IMG/VR virus record: IMGVR_UViG_2974645756_000001
Coordinates: 58,062-122,061 of that record
Direction: 5' to 3' (one strand)
Source of the DNA: a virus
DNA: 64,000 nucleotides
Shown: piece by piece, positions 10,838 to 52,127 of the stretch
How the letters are laid out: the number at the start of each line of letters is the position of its first letter
How positions within the stretch are numbered: position 1 is the first letter of the stretch
Made by a program: the position numbers and the translations under genes
Notes under the pieces: model-generated
The model's database searches: none
Seen by the model: only the letters and a program-made list of their open reading frames with translations
What the model was told of the DNA's origin: nothing

Positions 10838-10883
10838 TATATTTGTTGTATAAATGAGAATCATTAACGATGGCGAAGCCATC
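10838..10883 (+). promoter_or_regulatory. TATATTTG promoter plus two-hairpin leader (AATGA-GAA-TCATT; GATGGC-GAA-GCCATC)
   Basis: same architecture recurs at 49815 and 52081, and in part at 17893 and 50189. Confidence 0.7.
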
Positions 10884-10901
10884 TAGTTAAAAACATTAGA
10901 C

Positions 10902-11144
10902 ATGAGTAAGACAAAAATAGTAGTAGCAAACGAGAACACATTATGTTATATAATTCCTCAATTACCTAATAGTTTACAGGTTTTATCACCAAGCATTATA
11001 AGGGGTTCAACAATGCAAGATTTTGGGTCATATCCAATCGAAAATTACGAAGTTCGCTTGGCTACCAGCAAAGATTTTGAAACTTACAGAGTATGTGAAA
11101 ATGGTTATAGAGAAGATGTTGAAAATTACGAATATAACAGATAA
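10902..11144 (+). CDS. hypothetical protein, paralog of 11910..12167
   Basis: KIVVANENTLCYIIP..VRLATSKDFE aligns by eye with KLVVIDEHTLGYIFP..IRLACEQDFE. Confidence 0.7.
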   Translation: MSKTKIVVANENTLCYIIPQLPNSLQVLSPSIIRGSTMQDFGSYPIENYEVRLATSKDFETYRVCENGYREDVENYEYNR

Positions 11145-11376
11145 TGTACATACTTATATCAATTAGTGGTAATGACTATAGAAGAGAAGTCCTAGTAAGG
11201 TATCTAAAAGAAAATCTAAACTGGTAGACCATATTAAAGAGAATGGTTATTATTTCAGTAAGAAACTTAACCGATACATAGATGATAAAAACACTAAAGA
11301 TGGTGGTAGTGGTGTTGACTATGTAATAGAACAAATAGAAGAAATTTAAACAATTATTAATTATAAATACATACAA

Positions 11377-11643
11377 ATGAAAAAACGTTTATTAGTTATT
11401 TTTGCAATTATTGCAATGTCATTAACATCATGTACCGATGCTACTCGTGCTAAATGGGGTGGTTATGGTTCTGAGTTCAAAGTTGAGTTAGTTAACTGTG
11501 ATGGTACAATTACACACTCATGGATTAGTAGTGGTAAAGTATTAAGTGAGCAATCAAGTGATGGTTATTACTTCAATGATAAAGAAACTGGTAGGATTAT
11601 TGAAGTTACTGGAACATTAATCATATCAAAATATAAAGACTAA
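11377..11643 (+). CDS. putative lipoprotein
   Basis: MKKR + hydrophobic stretch + LTSC lipobox. Confidence 0.7.
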   Translation: MKKRLLVIFAIIAMSLTSCTDATRAKWGGYGSEFKVELVNCDGTITHSWISSGKVLSEQSSDGYYFNDKETGRIIEVTGTLIISKYKD

Positions 11644-11647
11644 ATAA

Positions 11648-11822
11648 ATATTCCCGAAATGTCCGTGAGCAATCGAAGTACAAGATTGTGAATTAACCGA
11701 CAGTAGCCTAGTGCGCAATAGGTGTGTAGTAAATGTAAGGAATATATAATAACACATGCTAGTGTAGTACTTAATTATCCAAGTACTTTCGAATGCACTA
11801 TTGGAATAGAATAGGTGTTATT
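11648..11822 (+). ncRNA. candidate structured non-coding RNA of unknown family
   Basis: ORF-free segment with nested stems: ATATTCC/GGAATAT, CAATC/GATTG, CCTA/TAGG, AATAACAC/GTGTTATT, TAGTG/CACTA, AGTACTT/AAGTACT; followed by a terminator. Confidence 0.45.
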
Positions 11823-11825
11823 TTA

Positions 11826-11858
11826 AAAAATCCTGAACATTTTTTGTTCAGGATTTTT
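11826..11858 (+). terminator. inverted repeat/terminator
   Basis: AAAAATCCTGAACA...TGTTCAGGATTTTT. Confidence 0.8.
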
Positions 11859-11871
11859 CTATTTAAAATAT

Positions 11872-11908
11872 AAGTGTTATATTTGAATAGTCAAACAAAA
11901 AGAGATAA
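11872..11908 (+). repeat. 37-bp promoter/leader direct repeat, copy 1
   Basis: AAGTGTTATATTTGAATAGTCAAACAAAAAGAGATAA, identical to 12191..12227; contains TATATTTG. Confidence 0.85.
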
Positions 11909-11909
11909 C

Positions 11910-12167
11910 ATGAACAACAATAAAGATTTCGATTTCCGTATTAAATTAGTAGTAATAGATGAACATACTTTAGGTTATATCTTCCCTGAATATCCTGATG
12001 AATTTCATATACTAAGTAAGAATTGTGAATCACCATATAGAAGTGGTGATAAGTATGTTATAACTCACGAAAATATTAGATTGGCATGTGAACAAGATTT
12101 CGAAAATTTCTATACAGTTTTCGATGGTTACAATAATCCTGCTAGATATATTTACGATAACAAGTAA
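11910..12167 (+). CDS. hypothetical protein, paralog of 10902..11144
   Basis: bracketed by the two 37-bp repeats; start moved to the ATG after the repeat. Confidence 0.7.
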   Translation: MNNNKDFDFRIKLVVIDEHTLGYIFPEYPDEFHILSKNCESPYRSGDKYVITHENIRLACEQDFENFYTVFDGYNNPARYIYDNK

Positions 12168-12190
12168 ATAAATTTGCGTGGGAACTTTAA

Positions 12191-12227
12191 AAGTGTTATA
12201 TTTGAATAGTCAAACAAAAAGAGATAA
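12191..12227 (+). repeat. 37-bp promoter/leader direct repeat, copy 2
   Basis: identical to 11872..11908. Confidence 0.85.
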
Positions 12228-12230
12228 ATT

Positions 12231-12458
12231 ATGTTAACAGTTGAATTAGGTAATATAGGTTGCGAAAAACAAGCAAAGAAAATCAAAGAAAAATTACAAG
12301 GTAAAACTTACTTCAATTTTGAGGTTGATTATTGTGCATACATGGGTAATTATCCTGTATCAGTTTCTAGTGACATTAACAATAATAATAGTGGTAACGA
12401 ATACACTTTAGAAGAATTTAAATATATGTTAATGTTCGTTATGGCATGTGAAATGTAA
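12231..12458 (+). CDS. small hypothetical protein
   Basis: 75-aa ORF directly after repeat copy 2. Confidence 0.65.
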   Translation: MLTVELGNIGCEKQAKKIKEKLQGKTYFNFEVDYCAYMGNYPVSVSSDINNNNSGNEYTLEEFKYMLMFVMACEM

Positions 12459-12477
12459 GAATAAATAAAAAATAATT

Positions 12478-12518
12478 AAAAAATCCCATTGTTATGTCAA
12501 TGGGATTTTTTATATTTG
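12478..12518 (+). promoter_or_regulatory. stem-loop plus TATATTTG promoter cassette
   Basis: AAAAAATCCCATTG-TTATGT-CAATGGGATTTTTT directly followed by TATATTTG. Confidence 0.75.
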
Positions 12519-12541
12519 TAGAGTCAAAAGATAAGAACATT

Positions 12542-15500
12542 ATGTTATATAAAAACAGTAATCAAGTAATACCACAAGAGGCAAGAAAAGATATCAATAA
12601 TAAAATTCTTCACTTAATTGAGACAGGTGATTTGCAAGGGTTGAGTCGAGAAGATATTTATAATGCATATACAGGTGATGGTGGTTTACATGGGTTAGAG
12701 TTCAAAAATTACAATTCATTCTACGATTATACAGAGGCTAAGAAACAGGTTGAGAATGGTCAATTTTTTACGCCAGCAACTACTGCACAAGATGTAGTTG
12801 ATACTTTAATGGTTCAACCAAGTGATTTAGTTGCAGACCTTACGTGTGGTCATGGTTCATTCTTCAATTACCTACCAACTCAATCAAATATTTACGGTAG
12901 TGATTTAGATAATAAAGCTGTAAGAGTTGCTAGATTTCTTTACCCAAAAGCAAATATAAAGAACCAAGACATTAGAGAATATGAACCAAATGTAAAGTTT
13001 GATTCAATCATAATCAACCCACCATTAATTTAAAGTTTGGTGATATGAGTTCTCAAATGTATGTTTGTCAAAAGTCTGCTGAGTTAATGAAACCACTTTC
13101 TTTGATGGCTTTAATTGTTCCTAAATCATTTTTGAATGATGAAATGATTAATAAAAAGACATTGAGCGAATGAATGAGTATTTCAATTTCGTTGGTCAGT
13201 ATGCGTTAAATCCGAAAGAATTTAAACAAATGGGTGTTGATTATTTCGAGACAAAAGTAATGTTCTTCCAAAGAAAATCAGAATTTGTTGATGATGTTCC
13301 TTTTATTAATATCTACAATGAACGTGATTATATTAAGGCTAGTATAGGCGATTTAAGAGCAGTTAAATCAACTTTAAAGGCTAAGACCCTTTCAGAGATT
13401 AAAAGCGATGATTCTGACTTCTCATATAGAGTTAAGAAGTATTTATATGAGTTTAAAACACACAAAAACTTACAATACTATTCTTCAAAGGCTGAGGCGT
13501 TAATTGAAAAATTCAATACTCAAAATAAACCTGAGGGGATGGAGTATAAAGAATGGGATAATATTAAATTAACCGAGGCTAAAGTATTAGCAACATTTAA
13601 GCGAGTTATGAAAAACGCTTATATAGTTGACCGTGATGTTATCCGAGTTGTTAAGCAGAACCATACGTTCAAAATCAAGCCATATAGCGGTAAAATGAAG
13701 CACGTAATTTCAAAAAAGGTATCAAACCCTCATATGAATATTTCACAGCTTGTAGCGTATCGTGGTGAGTTTGAAAAGTTCCTAACCGCATGTAAAGTTT
13801 TAAACTTAGATACTACAGAATTAACAAAGGTTGTTAACCGAAAGTATAAAGATTATTTACTACACAACGCAAGCATTAAGGATATACAACCTAGTAAAGA
13901 AATTAAACGTTTTGTAAATAGCTTTAAGTTTATTTCCAAAGGTAAAGTTTGTAAACTAACCAAAATTCAAAAAGAAGATATCGGTAAAGTTTTAACTAGA
14001 AAACACACACTACTTGGTTGGAGTATGGGTGGTGGTAAAAGCGTTGCTTTGTTGTGTATGATTAAATATATAAATAAACACAAATTATCTAAAAATGTTT
14101 TTGTGACTGCACCAGCAATTGCATTGGATTTAACATTAAAGAATTTTTTATCTCATAATGGTGTTGATTTTATAGAAATAAAAAACGCTAACCAACTTAA
14201 AAATATTAAAGATGGTAAAGTAGTTTTAATGACTTTGGGAAGACTTAGTATGTCTAAGGATTCTGTTAAAGAGTTTGTTAAATCAAAGAGTAACAAAGTT
14301 AGTATTTTGTTTGATGAGGTGGATGAAATAAAAAACAGATTATCTAAACGTTCACGAGCAGTTATTAATGCTTTTCGTAGATGTCACCGAACATTTTGTT
14401 TTACTGGAACACCAACAAGAAACAACATAAATGAGATATATGCTATTTTAGAATTAATGTATAATAATTCACATAATATGATGTGTGAAGTGTCTTCTAT
14501 TTATACACAAGACAAGAAGAGTAAAGAAATAAAAAACAAACCAAATAATAAAAAACAATTACCGTTTGATGCATACTATGGGTTTGGTTTATTCAAGTCT
14601 TGTTTTTCACCATCAAAAACAACAGTATTTGGTATAAAGAAAGACACCCAAAATATATTTAATACTGATGAGTTAAAACGAATTGTAGAACGCACAGTTA
14701 TTATTAGAAGTTCTGAGGAACTAATGGGTGATAAGAAAATTATTAAATCACACTTTGTTCAACCAAATTTAGCGGAACGTGAATTACAGGAGACTATAAT
14801 GAAAGAATTTCATCAAATATGTTATACATACTTTAGGTCAACTGGAAATAGTAGAAAGGAATCATATCTAAGAATCATCAGAATGATTAATTTATTGATT
14901 AAGAGTTGTACAGCACCACATTTAATGAATGATTGGAACGGTCAAGGATTACCAACTAAATATTCAAAGGTTCTTAAAATGATTGGCGAAAGACCAAATG
15001 AACCAATTATGATTGGGTGTGTAGGTATACCAAGTACACAAAGTTATTATGATGAAATAAAAAATAAGTATCCAAACAGACGTGTGTATTATGTTGATGG
15101 TACAATACCTTTTAAAAAAAGAAAACAAATAGTAGATGAATTTAACAACTCAGATAATGCAATATTAGTAAGCAACCAAGCATCATTAAAATCAAGTGTT
15201 TCTATAGAGAAATGTAATACTGTTATAATACCATCTTTGCCATGGAATTATGCTTCGCTTTCACAATACTTCTATCGTGCAATTAGATTTGATTCTGAAC
15301 ATAAAACAGAGGTTCATTTAATTACATATACTGATAGTATTGACTTAAATGTATTACAACTATTATTAAATAAAGAGAAGATTAATAATTTCATTAAAAC
15401 TGGTGATGAATCAACAGATGAAGAAGTAAATGAAGAGTTTGGTGTTGATGGTGATGTATTAGGTAGTGTTATTGAAAAATATTACGATGAAGAGGGTGGT

Positions 15501-15542
15501 ATGAGATTTATGTTAGGTTCTGAATCAAAAAGAGTGAGTTAA
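12542..15542 (+). CDS. N6-adenine DNA methyltransferase - SNF2-family helicase fusion (~1000 aa; two 1-nt indels)
   Basis: GQFFTP, motif I DLTCGHG and NPP(F) motif IV; adding one T near 13025 and one A near 13155 joins it to the helicase ORF (MGGGKS, DEVD, TGTP, QYFYRAIR). Confidence 0.82.
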
Positions 15543-15543
15543 T

Positions 15544-16310
15544 ATGAAAAATGATTTTATAATAGATAGGGTTGGTGAAAGATATTACACAAATCAAGGA
15601 TATGAAATAGAAATAATAAGATATAATGGGTATTATGATATATCGGTTAAGTTTCTATCAAGTGGACATGTTGTTGAAACAACATATACATCAATAAAAA
15701 ATGGAACTATAAAAAATTTGTTACATAAAACGGTAAAGGGTGTTGGTTGTTTTGGATATGGTGAATATAAATCTAGGAATAAAATATATGATACATGGTT
15801 TCATATATTAACTAGGTGTTATTGTGAAAAAACTCATATAAAACAACAACATATATTGGATGTAGTGTTGATGATTATTGGCACAATTATCAAAAATTTG
15901 CTGAATGGGTGGATGTAGAATATACAAAAAAATGTATCAAAATTGATAATAAAATGTACCTTGATAAAGATTTGTTGGTTAAAAATAATAAGATTTATTC
16001 AAAAGATACATGTGTTTTTATACCAAATGATGTTAATGTTTTAATAACAAATAGACGTAACTTTAGAGGCTGTTTACCTATAGGTGTAACTACATCAAAA
16101 AATAGGAATAAATATAGAAGTCAGATAAATATATACGGAAAACGTATTGGTTTAGGGTATTTCGATACACCATTTGATGCATTTAATGCATATAAAGAAG
16201 CAAAAGAGAATCATATAAAAGACATTGCTAATAAATATAAAAATGAACCGTGGATGTTAGATAAATTGTATAATGCTCTTATGACATACGAGGTTGAAAT
16301 AACGGATTAA
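15544..16310 (+). CDS. putative free-standing HNH-type homing endonuclease with AP2-like C-terminus (one 1-nt indel)
   Basis: repaired frame reads Q(P)TYIGCSVDDYWHNYQKFAEW..LDKDLLVKNNKIYSKDTCVFIP..PIGV..LGYFDTPFDAFNAYKEAKE, a common phage endonuclease pattern. Confidence 0.7.
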
Positions 16311-16364
16311 TTTTTGTAGTTTAAAATATAAGTGTTATATTTGTAGAGTAAAAATCGAAACAAT

Positions 16365-16646
16365 ATGCAAGTAGATATAAAAAATAGTAACGGTATGTAC
16401 ACATACATTTTAGAATGTTCAACAGGCACATGCGCTAAATCACATTCAGAATGGATTGAAGTTATAGAAACACCATTAACGAAAGATGATATTGAATTTA
16501 TGATTCTAGAGTCTAAAGATGATTGTGGTGATTATAAAGTATTTGGGTCTTATTTTAACTATTATCAATTATTCACACTACATGGTTGGTTATTAAAAAG
16601 AAAGCGTTCAATAACAGATATAAATCAGTTAAGAAATGAAGATTAA
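16365..16646 (+). CDS. hypothetical protein
   Basis: 93-aa ORF preceded by a TATATTTG promoter. Confidence 0.6.
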   Translation: MQVDIKNSNGMYTYILECSTGTCAKSHSEWIEVIETPLTKDDIEFMILESKDDCGDYKVFGSYFNYYQLFTLHGWLLKRKRSITDINQLRNED

Positions 16647-16812
16647 AAATATCAAATCAAATAAAAGATATTCAGCCTTGGGTACATGTGGTATGAGTAA
16701 CGGTATTTTATTTGAGGGTGAATTAACAAGTATTGATAGTTGGGGTGCGTATCTTAAATGTGATAGGGTATTATACACCTATGTAATAAAGACAAACTAA
16801 AAGAAATTTAAT

Positions 16813-17649
16813 ATGGACATACTAAGTAAATTAAATTCAATAAAAGTAGAAAACTCTTCAAGGATTCCAGTTGATTTATATGATAAACTAACAACATTTA
16901 GTGATGTTATGTTGAATGGAATTGACAATGTACAAAAGCATTTAGATTACCTTAATGTATATGACCAATGTTCAGAAAAGTATTTTGATAAAACAATTAG
17001 TGACCTTGAATATAAAATAAAGTCCTTTAAGATAAACTTCATAACAGACTGTATTAATTCAATCGAAGCTAGATATTTTATCATGGTTAAGCGATTACAC
17101 CATAGATATTCTTCATATTCTACTGATTTATTAAAGCAATTTAAAAACGAGACACCAACCATTGAAAGTATCTTAGATATTGTATTTGAATATACAGAGG
17201 GTGTATCATTGGAAGAGTTCGAAAAGAAAAGAGCAAAAGAAAAGTTCTTTAATGAACTTGATGACCGTTGGCAAAAACCATTAGCAACATTTACAAAGAG
17301 TGGTGTTGTAACATTACCTGAGTATATATACATTCATAATGATGGGTATATTCATTCTAATGGTCGTTTTAGAAGTTGTGATGTATATGATATAAAATTA
17401 CTATATCGTGTATTAAATCTGTTCGAGAATGATTCCATTGAATTATGGGATGATAAACAAAATATAAATGAATTTGAATATGATAACTATGTTAATCCAC
17501 TTGCTGGTAAAACAGTAATTGAGAATGATACGTTATTATCCGAGTTCAACATAAGTAAAAAAGGAACAATTAAATTAAGATTCAAAGAAAAGGAAAATGC
17601 TAATAAGTTTTTTCACTTCTTTAACCTACACAAAACCACAAATAGATAA
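16813..17649 (+). CDS. hypothetical protein, paralog of 17948..18874 (DUF4942-like C-terminus)
   Basis: N-terminus MDILSKLNSIKVEN; C-terminus FNISKKGTIKLRF. Confidence 0.6.
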   Translation: MDILSKLNSIKVENSSRIPVDLYDKLTTFSDVMLNGIDNVQKHLDYLNVYDQCSEKYFDKTISDLEYKIKSFKINFITDCINSIEARYFIMVKRLHHRYSSYSTDLLKQFKNETPTIESILDIVFEYTEGVSLEEFEKKRAKEKFFNELDDRWQKPLATFTKSGVVTLPEYIYIHNDGYIHSNGRFRSCDVYDIKLLYRVLNLFENDSIELWDDKQNINEFEYDNYVNPLAGKTVIENDTLLSEFNISKKGTIKLRFKEKENANKFFHFFNLHKTTNR

Positions 17650-17650
17650 C

Positions 17651-17867
17651 ATGAAAAAAATTAGTATTACTTATCACATTATTAGTATTATCAACAGCAT
17701 GTGACCCAATTACAGAGCATGGCAAAGAAATGCAAAAAATGGAATTAAAGGAACGTCAACTGGAATACTTAGAAAAGTTATATCGTATAAAAAGTGACAT
17801 AAACCACAAACTATTAATGAAAGAATTGGATAGTTTGGAAAATGATATTCTAAAAAAGTATAAATAA
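17651..17867 (+). CDS. small putative lipoprotein (one extra A in the run after ATG)
   Basis: repaired frame MKKLVLLITLLVLSTAC-DPITE..., lipobox STAC. Confidence 0.55.
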
Positions 17868-17892: not shown

Positions 17893-17929
17893 TATATTTG
17901 TAGGGTAAAACGGTGATGGTTAAACCATC
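17893..17929 (+). promoter_or_regulatory. TATATTTG promoter plus GATGGT-TAA-ACCATC leader hairpin
   Basis: leader nearly identical to 50189..50242. Confidence 0.7.
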
Positions 17930-17947: not shown

Positions 17948-18874
17948 ATGAGTTTATTAGACAAATTTAGTGCAGTTGAAGTAAAGAATGTTAATAGATT
18001 AAATGAAGAAGATTTAGAGTATGTTAACAAAAAAAGTTCTGAATATAAAAGAATCCTAGAATATAACAACAAATTACATTCAGCATTAAAGACCGTTCTT
18101 GATTCAAATATTGATGAATATAAAGAAATTTCATTCCACACAAAACCTTATCACACTTATGTACATAACAGCAATGATAGTTTAGGTTTAATTAGAAAAG
18201 ATATATCGAACTTACATTACCATTATATTGGTGATATTGTTGGTTACTTTACTAAGAAGTATAATATTACTTGTGATGCTGAAAATTTCGAAATCATACC
18301 AAACTATAAGAGAAGCGATTTATATAACCACAAAGCGTATCCTGAGTATTCTTATCACGGTTCAGAAAAGAGGTTCGAGAATATAGAAAATGTTGTTGTT
18401 GATTATAATGATATTATTGATTATTTATTCAAACACACAGACATGGTAAGTTTCGACCAACACAAAAAAGAGTCAAGTGTTGCATTATTAAAAGATATGT
18501 ACCGTGCAGATTCACACCGTGCAGATATTAAGGTAGCAAAGAATGGTAGTGTACAAATGCCAACATTTATGTCATGTCCTGAGTATCGTAAATTCGAGAG
18601 TGAGAATACAAATAAAGTAACATCACTTAGTGTGGTACTTGAACAAGTTTATTATGAATGTGGTTCTATGTTCAACGATAAGCTATCACCAAGCGCATTT
18701 AAAGACACTTTTTGTGTTGGTAAACCATATAGCCCAAATATTTCTGAACAGCACTCAAAACACGTTGTTGGTGATGATATAGTAGAGTATTACCACTTAA
18801 ACCAAAGCGGTGCTTTAAAAATCAAGTTCAGAAACGCTCAAATTAGTTCAAAGTTCATTAATAAAATTAAATAA
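17948..18874 (+). CDS. hypothetical protein, paralog of 16813..17649
   Basis: N-terminus MSLLDKFSAVEVKN; C-terminus YHLNQSGALKIKF. Confidence 0.6.
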   Translation: MSLLDKFSAVEVKNVNRLNEEDLEYVNKKSSEYKRILEYNNKLHSALKTVLDSNIDEYKEISFHTKPYHTYVHNSNDSLGLIRKDISNLHYHYIGDIVGYFTKKYNITCDAENFEIIPNYKRSDLYNHKAYPEYSYHGSEKRFENIENVVVDYNDIIDYLFKHTDMVSFDQHKKESSVALLKDMYRADSHRADIKVAKNGSVQMPTFMSCPEYRKFESENTNKVTSLSVVLEQVYYECGSMFNDKLSPSAFKDTFCVGKPYSPNISEQHSKHVVGDDIVEYYHLNQSGALKIKFRNAQISSKFINKIK

Positions 18875-36829: not shown

Positions 36830-37451
36830 AAAATACAGACGTAAATCATACATCTTATTCCCACACAAAGATGCTAAATTTAAGCAACGAAAATTCAATA
36901 AACTAACAGACCTAAAGAAATACTTATTCAAGCAAGGTTTCGATGCACTAGGTGCTGAAATTTCAATATCTAAGAAAGACTATTCATCATCTTGTTTTGG
37001 TGGTGTTGATATGTACTGTTGGGTTGACCGTATTGGTAAACTAAAACTATTCAAAGCCAATGGTAGAGGTTCTAAAATGAAAAAGTTTGGTAAGGTCAGT
37101 AAAGCAGATAAGAAGTATTATGCATTCTTTGATAAGTTTATGAAAATTATGTGTAAACCTGATGAAGAGGTTGCCACGGATAGAAATTTACTTAAATTAC
37201 TTGTTTGTATGAAACGAATGGGGTTTGTATCAAAAGAAATCAATTCTGATGATGATATGTTCGATTATTATACAAACGTAATGGATTCATACACAATTGA
37301 TGAATTAGCTGTAGAAAACTTCGGTTATTGGTCAGACCGTTGTGGATATTTTAGAAAACAGATTATAGTTGATATGATTGTTCGTGATAGACCTCACATA
37401 GTTGAGCAATTTAATGAAGTTGTTAATAGTAAACGTAGGTTTAGGTTATAA
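36819..37451 (+). CDS. hypothetical protein
   Basis: 210-aa basic ORF followed by the AAGGGTGC-TAC-GCACCCTT hairpin. Confidence 0.65.
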   Translation: MRNKKYRRKSYILFPHKDAKFKQRKFNKLTDLKKYLFKQGFDALGAEISISKKDYSSSCFGGVDMYCWVDRIGKLKLFKANGRGSKMKKFGKVSKADKKYYAFFDKFMKIMCKPDEEVATDRNLLKLLVCMKRMGFVSKEINSDDDMFDYYTNVMDSYTIDELAVENFGYWSDRCGYFRKQIIVDMIVRDRPHIVEQFNEVVNSKRRFRL

Positions 37452-39624: not shown

Positions 39625-41142
39625 ATGCAGAAATTAGACAAAGCATTTAGATTAAATTCAGCTTATTATTCAGATGGATATAAGATTGGACATAAACAAA
39701 TGTTAGCACCAAACACAGACTTTTTATATGGAACATGGATTCCACGTTCTGTTAAATATGCACCAAAGGGTGTTAGTAAAGTTGTATCAGCAGGACATCA
39801 GTTTGCATGGCGTTGGTTACACTCAGAGTATCAAGAAAACTTCTTTAATACACCAGTAGAGGATGCAATTAAATTTGTTGAAGATTTAAACATGTACTTA
39901 AACTTACCTTATAATGGTGAACACTTTATTGAGTTACATAAATTAGGGTACTTACCAATTAGAGTAAAGGCATTAAAAGAGGGTGTTGAGACAAATCCAA
40001 ACATCCCACACCAAACATTTGTTAATACAAAGGCTGGTTTTGCATGGTTAACTTTATACTTAGAAACAATTGTATCAGCATTATCATGGAGATTTTCAAC
40101 ATCAGCTACTATTGCATTACAATATAAAAGAAATGCATTAAAAGCGTTCAACGAAACTTGTAAAGAGGCGTTACCAGTATTACCATATCATTGTCACGAT
40201 TTTTCAGCAAGAGGTTTAGACCCATTTACAATGATGGCAAGTGGTTTAGGTTTTGCAACATCATTTAGAGGTTCTGATACATTAGCTGTTATACCAAGTG
40301 CTAGATACTTCTATGATGAACCTGAAAATGAAGTTGTAATTAATTCTGTAAATGCATCAGAGCATAGTGTATCAACAACAAAAATCTTTACTGTTGGTGA
40401 AAAGCAAATGATTATTGATTGGTGTAAAGAGTTTCCTACAGGAATCTTATCAATTGTAGCAGATACTTTTGATTTATTCAAATTAATTACAGAGTACTTA
40501 ACAGACCCTGTTGTTAAACAAGCTATTTTATACCGTGATGGAACAGTTGTAATTCGTCCTGATAGTGGTGACCCTGTTGATATTGTATGTGGTAAGAATA
40601 CTGGTAGATTAGCAGGAATGTATGGTGAAGCACAAAGAGATTTCCCTGATTTAAAAGGTGTTGTTGAATTACTTGGTGACATCTTTGGAACAACTACAAA
40701 CGAACAAGGTTATAAAGTATTAAATCCTAAAATTGGTTGTATCTACGGTAATACTATCACCGTAGATAGACAAACAGCAATCTACGAAAGATTAAAATCT
40801 AAAGGGTATGCATCTTGTAATATTGTTTTCGGTGTTGGTTCTTTCACATTAGGATACCAAACTAGAGATAGTTTAGGGTTTGCTTGCAAAGGTTCATGGT
40901 TTGAGTGTGATGGTAAAGGTCATAGTATTTACAAAGACCCAGCTACCGATGATGGTACTAAAAAATCATTAAAGGGTAAAGTTGCTGTTCATTATTCATA
41001 TGCTGATGGATATGTTGTACAAACAGAATGTACAGATGCGGAAGAACAAAAAGGTGAATTACAAGTTATTTACGAGGATGGTAAATTCTTCAACCAAACA
41101 ACTTTAACAGAAATTAGAGAAAATATTGATAATATTTTATAA
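39625..41142 (+). CDS. nadV: nicotinamide phosphoribosyltransferase
   Basis: DGYKIGH, HDFSARG, GSDT, ASEHSV, SIVADTFD, IRPDSGDP, GVGS, KDPATDDGTKKSLKG. Confidence 0.92.
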   Translation: MQKLDKAFRLNSAYYSDGYKIGHKQMLAPNTDFLYGTWIPRSVKYAPKGVSKVVSAGHQFAWRWLHSEYQENFFNTPVEDAIKFVEDLNMYLNLPYNGEHFIELHKLGYLPIRVKALKEGVETNPNIPHQTFVNTKAGFAWLTLYLETIVSALSWRFSTSATIALQYKRNALKAFNETCKEALPVLPYHCHDFSARGLDPFTMMASGLGFATSFRGSDTLAVIPSARYFYDEPENEVVINSVNASEHSVSTTKIFTVGEKQMIIDWCKEFPTGILSIVADTFDLFKLITEYLTDPVVKQAILYRDGTVVIRPDSGDPVDIVCGKNTGRLAGMYGEAQRDFPDLKGVVELLGDIFGTTTNEQGYKVLNPKIGCIYGNTITVDRQTAIYERLKSKGYASCNIVFGVGSFTLGYQTRDSLGFACKGSWFECDGKGHSIYKDPATDDGTKKSLKGKVAVHYSYADGYVVQTECTDAEEQKGELQVIYEDGKFFNQTTLTEIRENIDNIL

Positions 41143-45173: not shown

Positions 45174-45179
45174 AACACT

Positions 45180-45488
45180 ATGAGCAACGTAAGATATAAA
45201 TCATTAATGGAGTCTGTAAAAAATTCTTTCTTTAAGGAAGAAATTAAAGATTTTTATCCGTATTTATGGGAAGATATGGAAACTTTAATTAAGCCATTAT
45301 TAGATACTAGATATAAAGTAACTTATGATAAGAAAAATGATATATTTTTTATTTATAAGGGTGGTAAAGAAGTTATCAGATATGATAGATATGATATGAT
45401 TTTATATACTGATATTCCAAAGGCTGATATTTTTATGGATGTTCAGTATAACAAGAAATTAGATAAACTTAAAAAACATTTCAAATAA
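45180..45488 (+). CDS. hypothetical protein, possibly head-associated
   Basis: MSNVRYKSLME-S N-terminus; late-type promoter. Confidence 0.55.
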   Translation: MSNVRYKSLMESVKNSFFKEEIKDFYPYLWEDMETLIKPLLDTRYKVTYDKKNDIFFIYKGGKEVIRYDRYDMILYTDIPKADIFMDVQYNKKLDKLKKHFK

Positions 45489-45491
45489 GAT

Positions 45492-46049
45492 ATGAAGTCA
45501 AAGACATTACGTGAGTTTGCTAGTGATGAAATCAAAGCAACGTTAAAGGAAGAGGGTGTTATTAAGAGAATTAAGAAAGGTTCATCAAGATTAAAGAAAG
45601 CTGGTAGTAAAGCTGTAAAAGGTGTTAAGTGGTTAACATCCGAGAACATTAACGAGGCTGTTGTGTTTAGTATTAAAGGTATTGGTGAATACTCTTTTAT
45701 GGTATTTGATGCTGATGATGTTAAGACCGCAGAGGCACAGGAAGTTGCTCAAATGTTAAGTGTTTCTGTTGCTGATGTGGTTGGTGTTAGTTCAAAAGAT
45801 AATCCAACACAATACACAAAGATAAGTAAGTTAATTACCAGCGCACAATTTAAAGAGGCACAACGTTCAGAATTGTATGAGGATTTAACTTGTAGTGGTA
45901 TTCTTACATGTTTCCGTACAGGTGTTAAGATTCCTGTAGTATTTTCATTCTATGATAATGGAAACAATGTACCTACTGCTATTGTATTTTGTGCAGTTAA
46001 TGATAAGCAAAGTTTAAAACAAATATTAAATAACACACCATACGTGTAA
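45492..46049 (+). CDS. hypothetical protein, possibly head-associated
   Basis: LRE, INE-A and LYE-D protease-type junctions. Confidence 0.55.
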   Translation: MKSKTLREFASDEIKATLKEEGVIKRIKKGSSRLKKAGSKAVKGVKWLTSENINEAVVFSIKGIGEYSFMVFDADDVKTAEAQEVAQMLSVSVADVVGVSSKDNPTQYTKISKLITSAQFKEAQRSELYEDLTCSGILTCFRTGVKIPVVFSFYDNGNNVPTAIVFCAVNDKQSLKQILNNTPYV

Positions 46050-46147
46050 CAAGTTCACCGAAATCTGCCGTTTACTGGGATTTTTGGTTTTTACTCGACA
46101 AGGTGGAAAGGGATGGCATTAGCCATCTCTTTCTTAATTTACATATA

Positions 46148-46160
46148 CATTGTTTAATAC
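46148..46160 (+). promoter_or_regulatory. class II motif CATTGTTTAATAC
   Basis: 34 nt before ATG 46195. Confidence 0.55.
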
Positions 46161-46194
46161 ATATAATATAAACTTAAATAAAATTATACAAATT

Positions 46195-46467
46195 ATGGCA
46201 AAATCAAAAACACGTAAAGGACACCGTAAAAGAGTTGCTAAAAGAAATACACAAGTAAAGGCAAACACGAATAGATTATTCAAAGAGTTTGAGAAAAATA
46301 TGGAACTTGCAAAGACTCAAAGAAATTTAGAGCGTGAGTATACAAAAGAAATTGCCAAGGAAAATACTGCTGGTGAATCAGCAGATGCTTTAAAAACAAC
46401 CGCACCTGATATTGGATTAGATACTACTAGTGCAATGTTAAACGCTATGAAAACAACAATAGACTAA
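46195..46467 (+). CDS. small protein with a basic N-terminus
   Basis: MAKSKTRKGHRKR. Confidence 0.6.
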   Translation: MAKSKTRKGHRKRVAKRNTQVKANTNRLFKEFEKNMELAKTQRNLEREYTKEIAKENTAGESADALKTTAPDIGLDTTSAMLNAMKTTID

Positions 46468-47244
46468 ATGGATACACAAGACTTACTTAAACAAATAAAA
46501 AAAAAGTCTTGGATAATACATACCGAATTAAAAAACGAGGGTCGAACAACTTTATCAACGTATAAGATGTTCGACCTTTTAAGTAAACCAAAGGATTGGG
46601 AAGATATCGCTAAATGCGTATCAGAAAATCCAAACCATGAACATTTCGGTAAATCAGTTCAAGATATTTTGGATACATGGCAATCCAAATCAAAGAAAGG
46701 TGCAGACCGTGGAATGACATTAGATAGGTATATAATAGCTAAGATTAATGGTATTACATTGAATGTTTCAACAATGGATGAAGCAGAACAAAAGAAATGT
46801 AAGCAATTTGATTTGTGTTATGATAGTATGTTATCAAAGATTCCTATTATTGGTCAAGAGATTTGGTTAAATTCACGACTTGGGTTAAAGGTTAGATTAG
46901 ATGCTTTATTCACAATACCAAACTCAAAGAATCAACCAAGCGCATTAATTATTGATTGGAAGAACAACGAGAACATTTCAATGACAAATAAGTGGCAGAT
47001 GATGCAAGGAACACTTAAAGGTATTGAAGAATGTGACATCAACAAAATGACCCTACAAACACACATATACAGATATATTTTAGATGAGTATGGAATTTTT
47101 AATGATATTAGAACACGAGTATTCCAATTCACAACCGAAGAATATAAAATACATAAAGAATCATTTATGTATGATAAGGACTTAATCGAAAGGACTGTTA
47201 AATATTGTTTTAAAGAATTAGAAAGACGTGAGAACAAAGGTTAA
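46468..47244 (+). CDS. PD-(D/E)XK (RecB/Cas4-like) exonuclease
   Basis: RG..LD, QE, RLDAL, IIDWK, LQTHIY. Confidence 0.75.
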   Translation: MDTQDLLKQIKKKSWIIHTELKNEGRTTLSTYKMFDLLSKPKDWEDIAKCVSENPNHEHFGKSVQDILDTWQSKSKKGADRGMTLDRYIIAKINGITLNVSTMDEAEQKKCKQFDLCYDSMLSKIPIIGQEIWLNSRLGLKVRLDALFTIPNSKNQPSALIIDWKNNENISMTNKWQMMQGTLKGIEECDINKMTLQTHIYRYILDEYGIFNDIRTRVFQFTTEEYKIHKESFMYDKDLIERTVKYCFKELERRENKG

Positions 47245-47568
47245 TCACATTAGAAATGTATATGATGTTTATATAGGTCGTGCGAGATATTGTGACCGAC
47301 TAAATAATGACCCAATCACATACGATACTGATTTAAATTATCTATCAAAAATTGGATACTTCTCTAATCCATATAAACTAGAACCAAACGCACCCTTGGT
47401 GCTACACTTCCGCAATTCAGAAAGTATTTTTATCATAGGTTGAAAACTGATGATGTATTTAAACATCATATATACCAACTAAAAGGAAAACAACTAGGGT
47501 GTTTTTGTTCACCTAGTACATGTCATGGCTCAATAATATGTGAATATTTGAATAAAATTTATAAGTAG
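47228..47568 (+). CDS. DUF4326-family protein (one 1-nt indel near 47395)
   Basis: DVYIGR..NPY, then in the shifted frame LKGKQLGCFCSPSTCHG. Confidence 0.75.
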
Positions 47569-47609
47569 TAAATCCGCACCAGTTGGTGCGGATTCTTTAT
47601 TTGATACTA

Positions 47610-47622
47610 CATTGTTTAATAC
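47610..47622 (+). promoter_or_regulatory. class II motif CATTGTTTAATAC
   Basis: 21 nt before ATG 47644; follows the AATCCGCACC/GGTGCGGATT terminator. Confidence 0.55.
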
Positions 47623-47643
47623 TTAAAAATAATATTTATATAA

Positions 47644-48618
47644 ATGATAGATTTACCAAAAGATGAAAAACTAGTAGTTATTATCAATGGTCGTCCAACA
47701 GCAGGAAAAGACAAATTTGTTGAGTATGTGAGTTCTAATTCAGATATGATAAACAAAAAAGTCGGTAATTATAGCTCTGTTGGCAACGTAAAGGCATCTG
47801 CATCAATTTTAGGATGGGATGGTACAAAGACTGATGATAATAGAAATGCACTTTCCGAACTTAAAGTAATTAGTGAATCGTTATGGAACGGAACTACCAA
47901 TTATATGTTAAATATGATTGAGAATAATAACAACCACATTACATTCTTACATATTCGTGAGATTGAAAGTATTAATAAGATGGTTGGTGTATGTAATGAA
48001 AACGGATATAAAGTTATTACATTATATGTTGACCGTGATGTTGAAGTAACTGCCGATAATGAGGGTGACTGTGATGCATTATATCCTGAGTTATATCCAT
48101 ATGCACATATTATTGATAACAATAATACATTATATGACTTAGAAAACAAAGCAAAGAATTTCTTATTATTTGTTAGTGATTTAAGTAAGATTCCAACACA
48201 AACAAAGATTGAATTAAAAGACCCTAAAGAATTAGATGTTGTTTATGTGTCTTTGAGTGGTACATTTGATACTTATGGTGAGTTATTAAATGCGTGTGGT
48301 AATATTAATGTAATTAAAGAGAATTTAGCTAGATTTTCAGGTGCTAAGATTATCAGCGAACATTGCGACAACAGACACGAAATTATGCAACGTGAATGGA
48401 AGTTTCCAGTAGATTTTCCACACAATGAATTACCTAGATTCGGTTCAGTTGGTGTATTTGATTATGACTCTAACTGGAATAGTTTAGTAGGATTGTTGAG
48501 ACTTTCTGAATATGATGGGACAGTTTATCTAAATGACCGACAAAAGACCTTTGAATGTGTTGCATTACACATACACAACACAAAGGATATTGAAGATATT
48601 GACTTACCAAATATGTAA
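47644..48618 (+). CDS. dNMP-kinase-like P-loop protein with an unknown C-terminal domain
   Basis: NGRPTAGKD, FLHIRE, IIDNNNTL; about 140 extra C-terminal residues. Confidence 0.65.
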   Translation: MIDLPKDEKLVVIINGRPTAGKDKFVEYVSSNSDMINKKVGNYSSVGNVKASASILGWDGTKTDDNRNALSELKVISESLWNGTTNYMLNMIENNNNHITFLHIREIESINKMVGVCNENGYKVITLYVDRDVEVTADNEGDCDALYPELYPYAHIIDNNNTLYDLENKAKNFLLFVSDLSKIPTQTKIELKDPKELDVVYVSLSGTFDTYGELLNACGNINVIKENLARFSGAKIISEHCDNRHEIMQREWKFPVDFPHNELPRFGSVGVFDYDSNWNSLVGLLRLSEYDGTVYLNDRQKTFECVALHIHNTKDIEDIDLPNM

Positions 48619-48622
48619 TAAA

Positions 48623-49093
48623 ATGAAACAAACAAAAATTATTTGTGGTTTCCCTGGCGTGGGTAAATCACACCTTTATCGAAACCAAATGAAATATGGT
48701 TTAAAGATTCTAGATAGTGATAGTTCAACATTTGATAAGACAGAATTTCCTGATAACTATATCAAACACATCAAAGAAAATATTGGTAAAGCTGATGTTA
48801 TTTTAGTATCATCACACAAAGAAGTTCGTGATGCATTGGTTGCCGAGAAATTACCACATTACTTTGTACATCCTTGTATTTCTATGAATATGGTTTATAA
48901 AAAACGCTATGAGGATAGAGGAAGTGATGAAAAATTCATCAATCTTATAATGAATAATTGGGATACTTGGATTCGTGAAATACTTGATGAAGAACCATCA
49001 ATATATAGAACTAATATTAAAATTGTCTATGATACAATGACAAATGTTGTTACTAGTTTATTTAATATTGAAACCCCAAATGATATTGAGTGA
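48623..49093 (+). CDS. P-loop nucleotide-kinase-like protein
   Basis: GFPGVGKS, DSDSS, RG. Confidence 0.7.
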   Translation: MKQTKIICGFPGVGKSHLYRNQMKYGLKILDSDSSTFDKTEFPDNYIKHIKENIGKADVILVSSHKEVRDALVAEKLPHYFVHPCISMNMVYKKRYEDRGSDEKFINLIMNNWDTWIREILDEEPSIYRTNIKIVYDTMTNVVTSLFNIETPNDIE

Positions 49094-49367
49094 AGACCAC
49101 ATTAAACAACATGGTTTTGAATCAGCACTAAAGGCATATAATGAAGATGAACTATTAGAACTTTTAAAGAAATCAGTATATGATTTAAATCTAACATTAC
49201 ATGAGGTTAATAATAGAGGTATGTTTGTTACAGTAGCACAAACCACACAACATTCAGAAAGTCCTAAATACCGACACGATATAACAGAAATTAGAAATAT
49301 TAAATTAGTATCACTTGATAAAAATTTATACAGAAAATCACCACTAAACAAATCAAATGAAAAATAA
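49080..49367 (+). CDS. hypothetical protein
   Basis: start moved to ATG 49080. Confidence 0.55.
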   Translation: MILSEDHIKQHGFESALKAYNEDELLELLKKSVYDLNLTLHEVNNRGMFVTVAQTTQHSESPKYRHDITEIRNIKLVSLDKNLYRKSPLNKSNEK

Positions 49368-49809
49368 TAAATTAAAACATTTTACGGATGCTGTAACAGC
49401 ATTCCACACAGCATTTAACGCACCAGTATCACACGAACCAACATTAATTACAAAAGACCGTTCGGATTTACGTTTTGAATTAATGCGTGAAGAGAATCAA
49501 GAATATGCGGATGCGGTAAAGGATGGTAATTTAATTGAAGTTGGTGATGCCCTTGGTGATATGTTATACATTCTTTGTGGTACTATTATCGAACATGGAA
49601 TGCAACATAAAATTACTGAGGTGTTTGATGAGATACAAGCATCTAATATGTCTAAGTTGGGTGAGGATGGTAAACCAATCTTACGAGAAGATGGTAAGAT
49701 TTTAAAGGGTAAGAATTACTTTAAACCAAACATTGCACAATTCTTTGAGAGTATATATGTAAAGGAACTTAGATATTTATTAGATGGTAGGATTGCAGAT
49801 AACAAATAA
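49357..49809 (+). CDS. MazG-superfamily NTP pyrophosphohydrolase (PRA-PH-like)
   Basis: LMREENQEY, DALGDMLY, SNMSKL, REDGKILKG. Confidence 0.88.
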   Translation: MKNNKLKHFTDAVTAFHTAFNAPVSHEPTLITKDRSDLRFELMREENQEYADAVKDGNLIEVGDALGDMLYILCGTIIEHGMQHKITEVFDEIQASNMSKLGEDGKPILREDGKILKGKNYFKPNIAQFFESIYVKELRYLLDGRIADNK

Positions 49810-49814
49810 TTCAC

Positions 49815-49860
49815 TATATTTGTCATGTAAATGTGAAACATTAGTGATGGCTACGCCATC
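49815..49860 (+). promoter_or_regulatory. TATATTTG promoter plus two-hairpin leader (AATGT-GAA-ACATT; GATGGC-TAC-GCCATC)
   Basis: matches the 10838 and 52081 copies. Confidence 0.7.
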
Positions 49861-49881
49861 TAATAATTAAAACACCGAGTT

Positions 49882-50157
49882 ATGGCAAGCGACAAATTAA
49901 TAACAATAAGAAACAAAGAGTACGTTATTTTAGCAGAGAAACCAAATAAGTATGAGAATCTTTATAAAGGTTGTGATACTGAGGTTTTGTTAGGTATACG
50001 TGGTAAGCGTGGTAATTTATTAAAAACCCTTTACACTTCTGCATATGATGCTAAAACTGGCAAAACGTACATTCCGCTTGCATATCCATTTGCAACACTT
50101 CAAGAAATAATAAATTCTGAAAATAGTTGCGGTTGGAATATTTTAACAAAAAACTAG
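49882..50157 (+). CDS. small hypothetical protein
   Basis: single-gene unit between a promoter and the AAAAACTAGAAAT..ATTTCTAGTTTTT hairpin. Confidence 0.6.
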   Translation: MASDKLITIRNKEYVILAEKPNKYENLYKGCDTEVLLGIRGKRGNLLKTLYTSAYDAKTGKTYIPLAYPFATLQEIINSENSCGWNILTKN

Positions 50158-50188
50158 AAATTCTTTTGGATTTCTAGTTTTTATTATT

Positions 50189-50225
50189 TATATTTGTAAG
50201 GTAAATGAGTGATGGTTAACCCATC
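50189..50225 (+). promoter_or_regulatory. TATATTTG promoter plus GATGG-TTAAC-CCATC leader hairpin
   Basis: near-copy of the 17893 leader. Confidence 0.7.
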
Positions 50226-50242
50226 CATTAAAAATAAAACAG

Positions 50243-50569
50243 ATGAAAAATTTATTAGTATTAAACGTAGTTAATGTTGCAGAAGAAACAAACATAGCTA
50301 ACATGTTAAGATTAGATGTTAGTTATAATAATGTTAATTTAGGTTCTGTGGTTTTGTTTGATTTTAGTAAAGATTTTGATAGATTAGAATCATCATTAAA
50401 AGACTTATTAACACTTAGTGATAACGAGATTCAAGAACTTTCATACATAAATTGTGAGAATACTTTATCTATTGAACAAGGTGTATTGACCATTGATGAT
50501 GACAATACAGGTGATATAAATAAGGTAACACTAAAAGACGTAACCACAATATTTATAAACAAAAACTAA
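50243..50569 (+). CDS. hypothetical protein
   Basis: 108-aa acidic ORF. Confidence 0.6.
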   Translation: MKNLLVLNVVNVAEETNIANMLRLDVSYNNVNLGSVVLFDFSKDFDRLESSLKDLLTLSDNEIQELSYINCENTLSIEQGVLTIDDDNTGDINKVTLKDVTTIFINKN

Positions 50570-51000
50570 TGAAAAAGTTCACCAATTATGCTAAGTTAAT
50601 CGTTGAAGATTTACGTGAATTATCAAAGATAAAGACTAAATTAACTGTAAATACTATTGTTTATAGTTCTGCTCATGGTGATGAGCGAAAGTCTAGAGAT
50701 TTAAAGAATTTGATTGATGATTCAGAAATTATAAAATCAATTCAACGTGCATTTCCAAAATTACATGATTCTATATTGAATGGTATTTTAAGGGTTGATA
50801 GAAATCCACCAAAAACAAAAGGTAAATACAATCCACCAACGGATACTATTTTCGGAATCACAGATACAAAGAATGATTTAAATATTGTGGCAACCTTAGC
50901 AAAGAGTGAGGATTATAAAACAATTAATGCGGTTATCATTACCGTAATTAAAAAGAAAGGTTTTGTATTTAAAAATTTAGCCGTACAAATAGAAGTTTAA
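50569..51000 (+). CDS. hypothetical protein, possible BECR-fold RNase-like
   Basis: SAHGDERKSR (H..ER..R) and a C-terminal VIITVI strand. Confidence 0.4.
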   Translation: MKKFTNYAKLIVEDLRELSKIKTKLTVNTIVYSSAHGDERKSRDLKNLIDDSEIIKSIQRAFPKLHDSILNGILRVDRNPPKTKGKYNPPTDTIFGITDTKNDLNIVATLAKSEDYKTINAVIITVIKKKGFVFKNLAVQIEV

Positions 51001-51019
51001 CGTAAATAATTTATTCAGA

Positions 51020-51448
51020 ATGGAAATTACTATAAAAAATTTAAAATTAGTTGATTCAATAATTACACAAAAACTAACAGAAGACCACATAAAAAACACA
51101 GTATCTACTGTACTATTACAGGGTATTAAAAATTTACAATTCACATACGAAAATGAATTAGGCGAAACATATTTAGAAAGTGTTGTGTTAAATTTCGAAG
51201 TTGTTCGAGATAATGATGGTGATTTTAGAGTTGTTTTTGATGATAATTTATATTTATTTGATGATACAAATAGAAGAAGTCTAAATGGCATTTATGTAGT
51301 ACCAGTTATTGACTCAACATTCAGTAAACTAATGAAATATTCTTTTGTTGATGGTGCTGAAATTAGATTTTATGAAATATTCCATTCAAATCTTAGTGAA
51401 TTTATTAATGGTATGGTTGGGGTTAAAGTTACAAACGATGACATCTAA
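51020..51448 (+). CDS. hypothetical protein
   Basis: 142-aa ORF. Confidence 0.6.
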   Translation: MEITIKNLKLVDSIITQKLTEDHIKNTVSTVLLQGIKNLQFTYENELGETYLESVVLNFEVVRDNDGDFRVVFDDNLYLFDDTNRRSLNGIYVVPVIDSTFSKLMKYSFVDGAEIRFYEIFHSNLSEFINGMVGVKVTNDDI

Positions 51449-52040
51449 ATACACCGAGGTTAGATTATTCTTTGAAATACCTACAGAATTTAATAAGGTA
51501 GAAACCCATCGTGTTTTATTAAAACTAAATGTAGTTTTAGAATCTAATTCGGATGCAGATAACCACCTTTCTGATATAAATAAAAAATGGATTATTGATG
51601 AGTTAAATTTCTATGATGGTATAAATAATTGGGATGTTTATTCAACAAAGGTTGTTGATGGTCACCTAGAGGAAGAAAGTGCCTCATTTATCATACGCAA
51701 GACCAAAAAACAGATGTTAGCAGAGAAGTTATTAGCAGAGAAGAGAAAAGAACATTCTACTGTATTAAAAACCAAGCCTAATTTTGATGGTGAGTATGTT
51801 ATATTTGGTTCATATAAGTATGATTTATACACTTTATCATATCTTTGGGGTCGATATACTAGAAACGAAAAATATAACGATAATGGGTTGTATTTGGGTA
51901 AGCGTGATCGAACAGAAGTTATTGAAGAACCAAAACTAACTGCTGGTATATTTATATTCTGTTATGATGGGTATAGATACGAAGTTAAAATAAATAGATA
52001 TATTGCACATTCGGTATATAAAGTCGAAGAGCAATATTAA
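51438..52040 (+). CDS. hypothetical protein
   Basis: start moved to ATG 51438. Confidence 0.6.
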   Translation: MTSKYTEVRLFFEIPTEFNKVETHRVLLKLNVVLESNSDADNHLSDINKKWIIDELNFYDGINNWDVYSTKVVDGHLEEESASFIIRKTKKQMLAEKLLAEKRKEHSTVLKTKPNFDGEYVIFGSYKYDLYTLSYLWGRYTRNEKYNDNGLYLGKRDRTEVIEEPKLTAGIFIFCYDGYRYEVKINRYIAHSVYKVEEQY

Positions 52041-52049
52041 AAATAATTT

Positions 52050-52127
52050 AAAAAGCATTTGGAATATCCAAATGCTTTTTGTATTTTGTATAGTAAATGT
52101 GAAACATTAACTATGGTGAAAGCCATC
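52050..52127 (+). promoter_or_regulatory. stem-loop + promoter + two-hairpin leader cassette
   Basis: AAAAAGCATTTGGA-ATA-TCCAAATGCTTTTT, a TATTTTG promoter-like element, AATGT-GAA-ACATT and ATGGT-GAAA-GCCAT; the stem-loop/promoter part recurs at 52882..52920 and 59426..59470. Confidence 0.7.

Follow-up and report, generated by a model that had tools for sequence, protein, structure and literature searches.

Between the promoter and the start codon of five early genes, an uncultured marine phage has one recurring short sequence able to form a hairpin. This element is real and phage-specific. It lies in a stretch of 64,000 nucleotides (nt; hereafter the window) corresponding to bases 58,062-122,061 of IMG/VR record IMGVR_UViG_2974645756_000001, a genome of 224,680 base pairs (bp) that was judged complete. 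The core hairpin (hp2) reads GATGG-N5-CCATC exactly in four of the leaders and TATGG-TGAAAG-CCATC in the fifth. From its sequence and placement, we tentatively read it as part of a transcribed 5'-leader hairpin module that may act as RNA; the motif is so far limited to a single, thinly sampled phage lineage, and any function is putative.

A hairpin module in five early leaders

The phage (~225 kb) is a T4-like jumbo phage of a marine member of the Flavobacteriaceae. Such hosts rely on a sigma-A promoter of unusual type and start translation without Shine-Dalgarno pairing; to our knowledge, gene control in the phages of marine Flavobacteriaceae is almost unstudied. G+C content in the window is 30%, and the + strand carries nearly all genes. 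Tenacibaculum phage pT24 (234,670 bp; LC168164.1) was the sole named relative found; identity to it is 32-49% for two genes examined in this work and 67% for a conserved helicase. pT24 is classed with the T4-like "group 2" jumbo phages, reported to have no RNA polymerase of their own and to use phage sigma factors (PMC7824862).

Intergenic regions of the genome carry the Bacteroidota sigma-A -7 box, TAnnTTTG, mostly as TATATTTG. Because the -7 box of Flavobacterium psychrophilum spans -12 to -5 (PMC9723704), we infer that transcription starts on the fifth base after the final G of the box, which would place the start of copy 1 at 10850. About 46 strong promoter-leader cassettes are present genome-wide, with leaders that are mostly 20-30 nt long, unstructured and of few repeated types: TCAAACAAAAAGAGATAAC, TAATTAAAA... 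and the hairpin type, which runs to 46-59 nt. Five of these ~46 cassettes, all with host-type promoters, contain the hairpin motif, in line with the preliminary description of this DNA, which had assigned it to a subset of early promoters. That description had also placed the five copies after promoters and before the ATG, and both the positions and the description held when checked on the sequence.

The copies, all on the + strand, fall into two layouts. Type A (copies 1, 3 and 5) has an upstream hairpin (hp1), AATGN-GAA-NCATT, from about +4, followed by hp2; type B (copies 2 and 4) has hp2 from about +11 and no hp1. Copy 1 consists of the -7 box TATATTTG at 10838-10845, hp1 AATGA-GAA-TCATT (AATGAGAATCATT) at 10853-10865, hp2 GATGG-CGAAG-CCATC (GATGGCGAAGCCATC) at 10869-10883, with 6 bp and a GAA loop, and the ATG at 10902. 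Copy 3 repeats this order, with its box TATATTTG at 49815-49822, hp1 AATGT-GAA-ACATT (AATGTGAAACATT) at 49830-49842, hp2 GATGG-CTACG-CCATC (GATGGCTACGCCATC) at 49846-49860 and the ATG at 49882. The box of copy 5 is shortened to TATTTTG (52082-52088); after it come hp1 AATGT-GAA-ACATT (AATGTGAAACATT) at 52096-52108, hp2 TATGG-TGAAAG-CCATC (TATGGTGAAAGCCATC) at 52112-52127 and the ATG at 52147. This hp2 has a 6-nt spacer and an outer T..C mismatch, and a U-G pair closes its GAAA loop. Exact hp1 sequences occur at these three sites only, which are those named in the preliminary description.

For type B, copy 2 has its box TATATTTG at 17893-17900, hp2 GATGG-TTAAA-CCATC (GATGGTTAAACCATC) at 17915-17929 and its ATG at 17948, and copy 4 has its box TATATTTG at 50189-50196, hp2 GATGG-TTAAC-CCATC (GATGGTTAACCCATC) at 50211-50225 and its ATG at 50243. 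From the end of the box to hp2 we counted 23 nt in every type A copy (1, 3 and 5) and 14 nt in both type B copies (2 and 4), so that the 14-31 nt given earlier for this interval needs correction; the distance from hp2 to the ATG (18, 18, 21, 17 and 19 nt in copies 1-5) agrees with the 17-21 nt given with it. The whole module is 15-34 nt long.

The five downstream proteins (80, 308, 91, 108 and 242 amino acids, aa) are mutually unrelated, and nucleotide similarity among the five loci is confined to ~50 nt of promoter and leader. Pfam yielded no family and no DNA-binding domain in any of the five proteins; the PHROG families that they matched have no known function, and nothing of use came from the ESM Atlas.

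Copies 4 and 5 lie inside terminator-plus-promoter cassettes, with terminator-like hairpins ahead of their boxes at 50149-50182 and 52049-52081, respectively. The copy 5 cassette equals those at 52907 and 59458 through the terminator, the promoter and the following "GTA"; there it takes up a 34-nt insert (AATGTG...CCATCTA), after which the leader rejoins the standard start TAATAATTAAAC, with TA on both sides of the insert. Because this cassette equals its sister cassettes plus a clean 34-nt insert, the module is an add-on at the 5' side of an otherwise ordinary leader. It can come or go as a unit and leaves the initiation region intact.

Specificity, homologues and strain variation

Chance does not account for these copies. 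A scan of the window with at most one mismatch gave 6 matches against 0.51 expected, a number reached by 0 of 100 shuffles; the two extra matches at this tolerance fell within coding regions. Exact matches numbered four in the entire genome, all in the window. A covariance-model search of the genome and relatives had been proposed at the outset; with a model built from the five copies, we recovered just those five from the 224,680 bp (E 2e-12 to 1.5e-6; next match E 1.7) and obtained no match in pT24 or in 151 Flavobacteriaceae genomes. The motif had been reported as belonging to no named family, and Rfam bears this out: nothing in the window reached a gathering threshold, and with E relaxed to 10 the leaders drew only chance-level matches to microRNA, small nucleolar RNA and RAGATH families.

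Broader pattern scans were likewise unproductive. Across IMG/VR, the hairpin plus its tail matched 29 times at chance level, 0 of them behind a TATATTTG box, and the two-hairpin pattern matched 0 times. Among the matches listed for metagenome contigs, 120 loci were inspected and all looked like chance; in 185,579 species genomes there were 25 matches, from unrelated taxa and at chance level. A protein database search with the 308-aa protein returned that protein alone, exact look-ups of three downstream proteins gave no record, and the 242-aa protein had one related locus, at 37% identity and without the hairpin. Searches with the conserved helicase, alone or as a profile with pT24, returned only pT24.

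One leader outside the phage closely resembles type B. On the Flavobacteriaceae metagenome-assembled genome contig CAZRUA010000011.1 (L191 3690-3760), TAGATTTG is followed by GTAAAAACGTT-GATGG-CGTATT-CCATC ahead of a class I/II aminotransferase gene, beside porP/sprF. We rejected it as a host homologue, as the hairpin is missing from 29 orthologous leaders of the same gene. A candidate sixth copy in the window, GATGGC...GCCATC at 46112, was set aside as the core of a 13-bp terminator-like hairpin.

Strain variation was followed by aligning contigs of four public runs to 49600-52400 of the window. Position 50220, the site of the innermost mismatch that had been noted in one copy, is C in the window and A in X1, X2 and X3, from three studies. 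With A, hp2 of copy 4 becomes GATGGTTAAACCATC, whose U-A closing pair is that of copy 2. The mismatch is thus present in the window as described and is strain-specific. One X1 contig has an additional T behind 52083, which would turn the copy 5 box into TATTTTTG. In X2, the sequence is nearly identical to the window over 49809-50567 and 9-12% different over 50556-52083; because X2 is almost identical over the first stretch, its conservation of copies 3 and 4 is uninformative on selection. Because a separate X2 contig of 2,292 nt matches the copy 3 promoter and leader (49815-49864) with 5 differences, related strains probably have an additional type-A leader. Related strains were seen in runs X2-X7 (six studies), at ~88-99% identity where X2 contigs were aligned. 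Just upstream of the copy 3 promoter, at 49756-49792, a 45-kb X1 contig has 35 bases swapped for 211 others, a strain-level indel at the cassette border.

RNA structure or DNA operator

Each leader has hp2 in its minimum-energy or centroid structure (-5.2 to -9.7 kcal/mol; z -0.8 to -3.2), with the A-rich tail unpaired, and the RNAalifold consensus contains the core hairpin only. Although four copies are laid out as 5+5+5 nt, hp2 mostly folds as 6 bp with a 3-nt loop. Over the five copies, pairing is kept in 91.5% of cells. Two pairs change on both sides, the innermost pair of hp1 (A-U/U-A) and that of hp2 (C-G/U-A); in addition, one copy has U-G, one an inner U..C mismatch and one an outer U..C. 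The covariation reported earlier therefore exists in the changes themselves and falls short of significance, its level being reached by 54 of 500 shuffles; the set is five paralogues, too few for statistical power. In a hand count of the five-copy alignment, 1 of 10 columns varies in the outer hp2 arms and 15 of 21 vary in their neighbours, a comparison biased by the motif having been found through its arms. The arms are more conserved than their surroundings, and this pattern suggests that their sequence is under constraint. Loops are CGAAG, CUACG, UUAAA, UUAAC and UGAAAG; all differ, and the central A is the only invariant base.

Should the module act as RNA, host sigma-A RNA polymerase would start ~5 nt after the TATATTTG box, as the Flavobacterium consensus implies, and the transcript would fold into GAUGG(N)-loop-(N)CCAUC, in three copies with the prior hairpin AAUGN-GAA-NCAUU from about +4. 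The hairpins would be followed by an ordinary A/U-rich, unstructured leader of 17-21 nt for initiation on mRNAs without a Shine-Dalgarno sequence. Because the arms keep their sequence while loop and linkers drift, the hairpin could be a tag that a trans-acting phage or host factor reads sequence-specifically, and such a factor might set the stability or translation of the five transcription units apart from the ~40 other early cassettes. We infer transcription from these promoters, action of the module as RNA and binding of a factor. The full proposal, in which a phage or hijacked host factor reads the GAUGG/CCAUC stem in five early mRNAs and thereby switches their stability or translation, strikes us as rather doubtful.

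Several features point to RNA. There are only five copies in 224,680 bp, and each lies on the coding strand between the -7 box and the ATG, always in a predicted transcribed leader, with the initiation region behind it intact. Stem changes keep pairing with one exception (A-U to U-A in hp1; C-G to U-A and U-G in hp2 are those that keep it), and the sole broken inner pair, caused by the C at 50220, is restored as U-A in three other runs, the majority reading among the populations. The extra loop base of copy 5 produces a U-G-closed GAAA tetraloop, which an RNA hairpin could tolerate and a rigid DNA-binding dimer less so. A model with two RNA hairpins covers both palindromes, whereas an operator model requires two types of site.

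Other findings weigh against action as RNA. Besides the lack of significant covariation, the two strands fold equally well in 4 of the 5 copies, leaving copy 5, with its U-G pair, as the only strand-specific one. Most known RNA-protein hairpin sites show the reverse of invariant arms around a variable loop, a profile typical of DNA operators, and one helical turn (10 bp) separates the half-site centres. In pT24, the orthologues of two downstream genes have short leaders and no hairpin, so the element is not conserved with the genes. Because the unstructured leader families of this genome are likewise near-identical between cassettes, the invariance of the arms may reflect cassette duplication or gene conversion. 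Finally, because the type B hairpin starts at about +11, a protective role at the very 5' end could not apply to all copies. Every Watson-Crick compensatory change also preserves the DNA palindrome. The preliminary description argued from the compensatory changes and the G-U pair for RNA over DNA, which goes further than the data support: the palindrome is kept as well, the innermost Y..R fits a half-site, the outer pairs are near-invariant and the minus strand folds too.

The closest rival is a DNA operator, which we consider somewhat unlikely. Here GATGG(Y)-N3-5-(R)CCATC would serve as an inverted repeat to which a dimeric phage or host protein binds; sitting just downstream of the start (centred near +18 for type B, near +27 for type A), this protein would block or modulate host RNA polymerase and so, for example, shut off the five early promoters after the early phase, with AATGN-GAA-NCATT (centred at about +10) as a second or auxiliary site. 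Half-sites that are invariant in 4 of 5 copies around free central bases would suit such a protein, as would the fold shared by both strands and the half-site spacing, and a degenerate 6-bp half-site explains the innermost Y..R (C..G, T..A, T..G) equally well. The distance from the -7 box is fixed (14 or 23 nt) and that to the ATG variable, and the two spacings differ by 9 bp, near one helical turn. Between copies 1 and 2, a 133-aa protein (15909-16310) has a weak, sub-threshold match to an AP2-type DNA-binding domain (E 5e-5; 24 bits against a cut-off of 33.3), which indicates only that candidate binders exist. Yet in copy 5 the spacer is extended by a base and a half-site is mutated, type A would need two different palindromes, and no copy is found upstream of or across the promoter core, nor on the other side of a gene. 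Complementarity is preserved by all inner-position changes and restored in three populations by the polymorphism at 50220, something that an operator would not need; no cognate regulator was identified, and the Pfam results for the five downstream proteins offer none. Because palindrome, degenerate half-site and invariant arms fit an operator as well, covariation does not settle the matter. The present data fit action at either level and cannot tell the two apart, with RNA structure, unproven, the slightly better reading.

Lower in probability is a neutral passenger, an account that we judge clearly unlikely, in which a quasi-palindromic insert entered one cassette and spread by recombination between near-identical cassettes, with no regulatory role or a generic one such as hiding upstream AUGs in hairpins. 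The ~46 promoter cassettes with few repeated leader types, the copy 5 cassette with its clean TA-flanked insert and the pT24 orthologues without it are all compatible with such a history, and the extra copy-3-like X2 contig, together with strain contigs that break at cassettes, suggests cassette turnover. Against it stand arms that are far better conserved than linkers, loops and tails and stem changes that keep pairing; moreover, a spreading element sits poorly with five copies in one orientation and position, without terminal inverted repeats, in a tightly packed genome with little intergenic non-coding DNA. A leader peptide read from the ATG in GATGG (M-[A/V]-x-P-S...) is highly improbable. 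The 5' arm always contains that ATG, M-A/V-x-P-S would be read from four copies, and in copy 2 the frame would end at a stop that overlaps the main start (ATGA); but the extra loop base of copy 5 shifts the frame to MVKAI*, the lengths and stop positions differ (5, 6, 7, 11 and 20 residues), M-x-x-P-S follows automatically from the conserved arms and the ATG is buried in a stem. Least credible of all is a DNA-hairpin promoter of the kind used by phage N4, which a phage RNA polymerase would read as a second start just upstream of the standard leader. Hairpin promoters of N4 reportedly have a 5-7-bp stem and a 3-nt loop, and a 6-bp stem with a 3-nt loop occurs in copies 1-3 and in copy 4 of other strains; the sequence past the hairpin also resembles the 5' end of standard leaders. 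Against this stand the absence of an own polymerase from pT24-type group 2 phages, the lack of any reading frame above 1,336 aa in the genome and the failure to find an RNA polymerase family among the large proteins tested.

Read as RNA or as DNA, the motif is best described as a lineage-restricted version of a familiar kind of element, namely a short inverted-repeat tag carried by some of a phage's early leaders, and we compared it with known systems. Antitermination in the style of boxB had been suggested. Like lambdoid nut boxB, the motif measures 15 nt, has a 5-bp stem around a 5-nt loop and recurs in early leaders shortly past promoters. In boxB, however, the conserved and recognised part is the purine-rich, GNRA-like loop, whereas here the loop varies and the stem is invariant; boxB also occurs once per long operon and the phage motif in five copies on separate short units. 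The five-copy alignment held no conserved linear element that could be a boxA-like partner beyond the A/T-rich tail, and no N-type arginine-rich protein turned up, though no protein search was aimed at one. With its defining conserved loop absent, we dropped the motif as a boxB family member and boxB-style action with it. The 5' stabilisers (hairpin 1 of Escherichia coli ompA, the Bacillus subtilis aprE and ermC leaders, and early RNA of phage SP82) also place a small stable hairpin near the 5' end and an unstructured initiation region after it. This likeness is limited to type A, with hp1 at about +4, since the type B hairpin at about +11 leaves a long single-stranded 5' end, both positions depending on predicted starts; stabilisers, moreover, need structure only, and the motif keeps its arm sequence.

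Palindromic operators (lac O1, lambda OR/OL, P22 Mnt/Arc) share with the motif conserved inverted half-sites ~10 bp apart, a free spacer and a place near the transcription start, and differ from it in that the motif varies its spacer length in one copy, adjoins a second palindrome in three and lies entirely downstream of the start. Translational operators of T4 (the gene 43 hairpin and the RegA sites) are leader elements through which early mRNAs of a T4-like phage are controlled post-transcriptionally, and that of gene 43 has a 5-bp hairpin; they overlap the ribosome binding site and AUG, and RegA sites are unstructured, whereas the phage motif ends 17-21 nt upstream. Promoter-early stem-loop (PeSL) cassettes of T4-type phages resemble the setting of copies 4 and 5, being repeated cassettes of terminator and early promoter that flank accessory genes. 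The PeSL stem-loop is a terminator upstream of the promoter; the phage motif is downstream, has no T-run after it and occurs in 5 of ~46 cassettes. Nor does the motif look like a repeat of the repetitive extragenic palindrome (REP) or miniature inverted-repeat transposable element (MITE) type, given five copies in one orientation and position without terminal inverted repeats; the TA flanks of the copy 5 insert are ambiguous in this respect. Two simpler ideas were discarded. CCATC is the BccI recognition site, but both GATGG and CCATC occur at expected frequencies, and the stems are far too short for RNase III.

A tag in 5 of ~46 early cassettes points to a sub-programme within the early phase. 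No function is known for the five tagged genes, which makes them candidate host take-over or counter-defence genes under common control. An RNA role for the tag would offer a handle on post-transcriptional control in these phages; a DNA role would define an operator and imply a repressor. An RNA tag would be the first cis-regulatory RNA class described for Bacteroidota phages, whose mRNAs lack a Shine-Dalgarno sequence, and an unusual one, in that the stem rather than the loop would be read.

Other cassettes and structured leaders

The remaining cassettes and leaders gave further observations. A near-identical unstructured leader, TCAAACAAAAAGAGATAAC, is common to cassettes at 11878 and 12197 in the window, 154955 and 157206 in the genome and others, and a second set of cassettes has the leader TAATTAAAA in common. 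The motif [CG]WTTGTTWWATAC is present in 19 copies genome-wide, on the + strand only (in the window, for example, at 964, 24054, 31388, 33335, 46148, 47610 and 56728), and usually lies right after a terminator-like hairpin, 25-45 nt ahead of an ATG. Because of this position, it is a probable second promoter class. The hairpin set aside above as a sixth copy spans 46105-46134 (13 bp; -20.2 kcal/mol; z -5.8), and its core GATGGC-ATTA-GCCATC (46112-46127) has arms as in the leader motif; it is followed by a T-rich tail and, ~15 nt on, by the phage-specific motif CATTGTTTAATAC, and looks like an intrinsic terminator.

Structured leaders of different sequence also occur. At 4958-5020 of the window, a TAGTTTTG box precedes a 9-bp hairpin (GTGCGCAAG...CTTGCGCAC), an A-rich leader and a 60-aa reading frame. 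Outside the window, on the minus strand of the genome at 188430-188508, a 332-aa gene is preceded by a TATATTTG box and then a 76-nt leader containing a 13-bp hairpin (-22 kcal/mol); the arm TTTAAGGCAC of this hairpin is also found near genome base 30. pT24 has a hairpin leader of its own, unrelated to the motif: on its minus strand at ~37060-37128, GTGTTAC-GGGG-GTAACAT stands at the presumed 5' end, with TAAAAATAAAAA next and a lipoprotein-like gene (297 aa) after it; this gene is without a homologue in the genome studied here.

Among the other genes of the window are those for a 1,318-aa SbcC/metallophosphoesterase-like protein (1004-4960), a nicotinamide phosphoribosyltransferase (39625-41142), a PRA-PH/MazG-type pyrophosphohydrolase (49357-49809), an RlaP-type nucleotidyltransferase (53741-54859) and an NAD-dependent DNA ligase (59741-60853).

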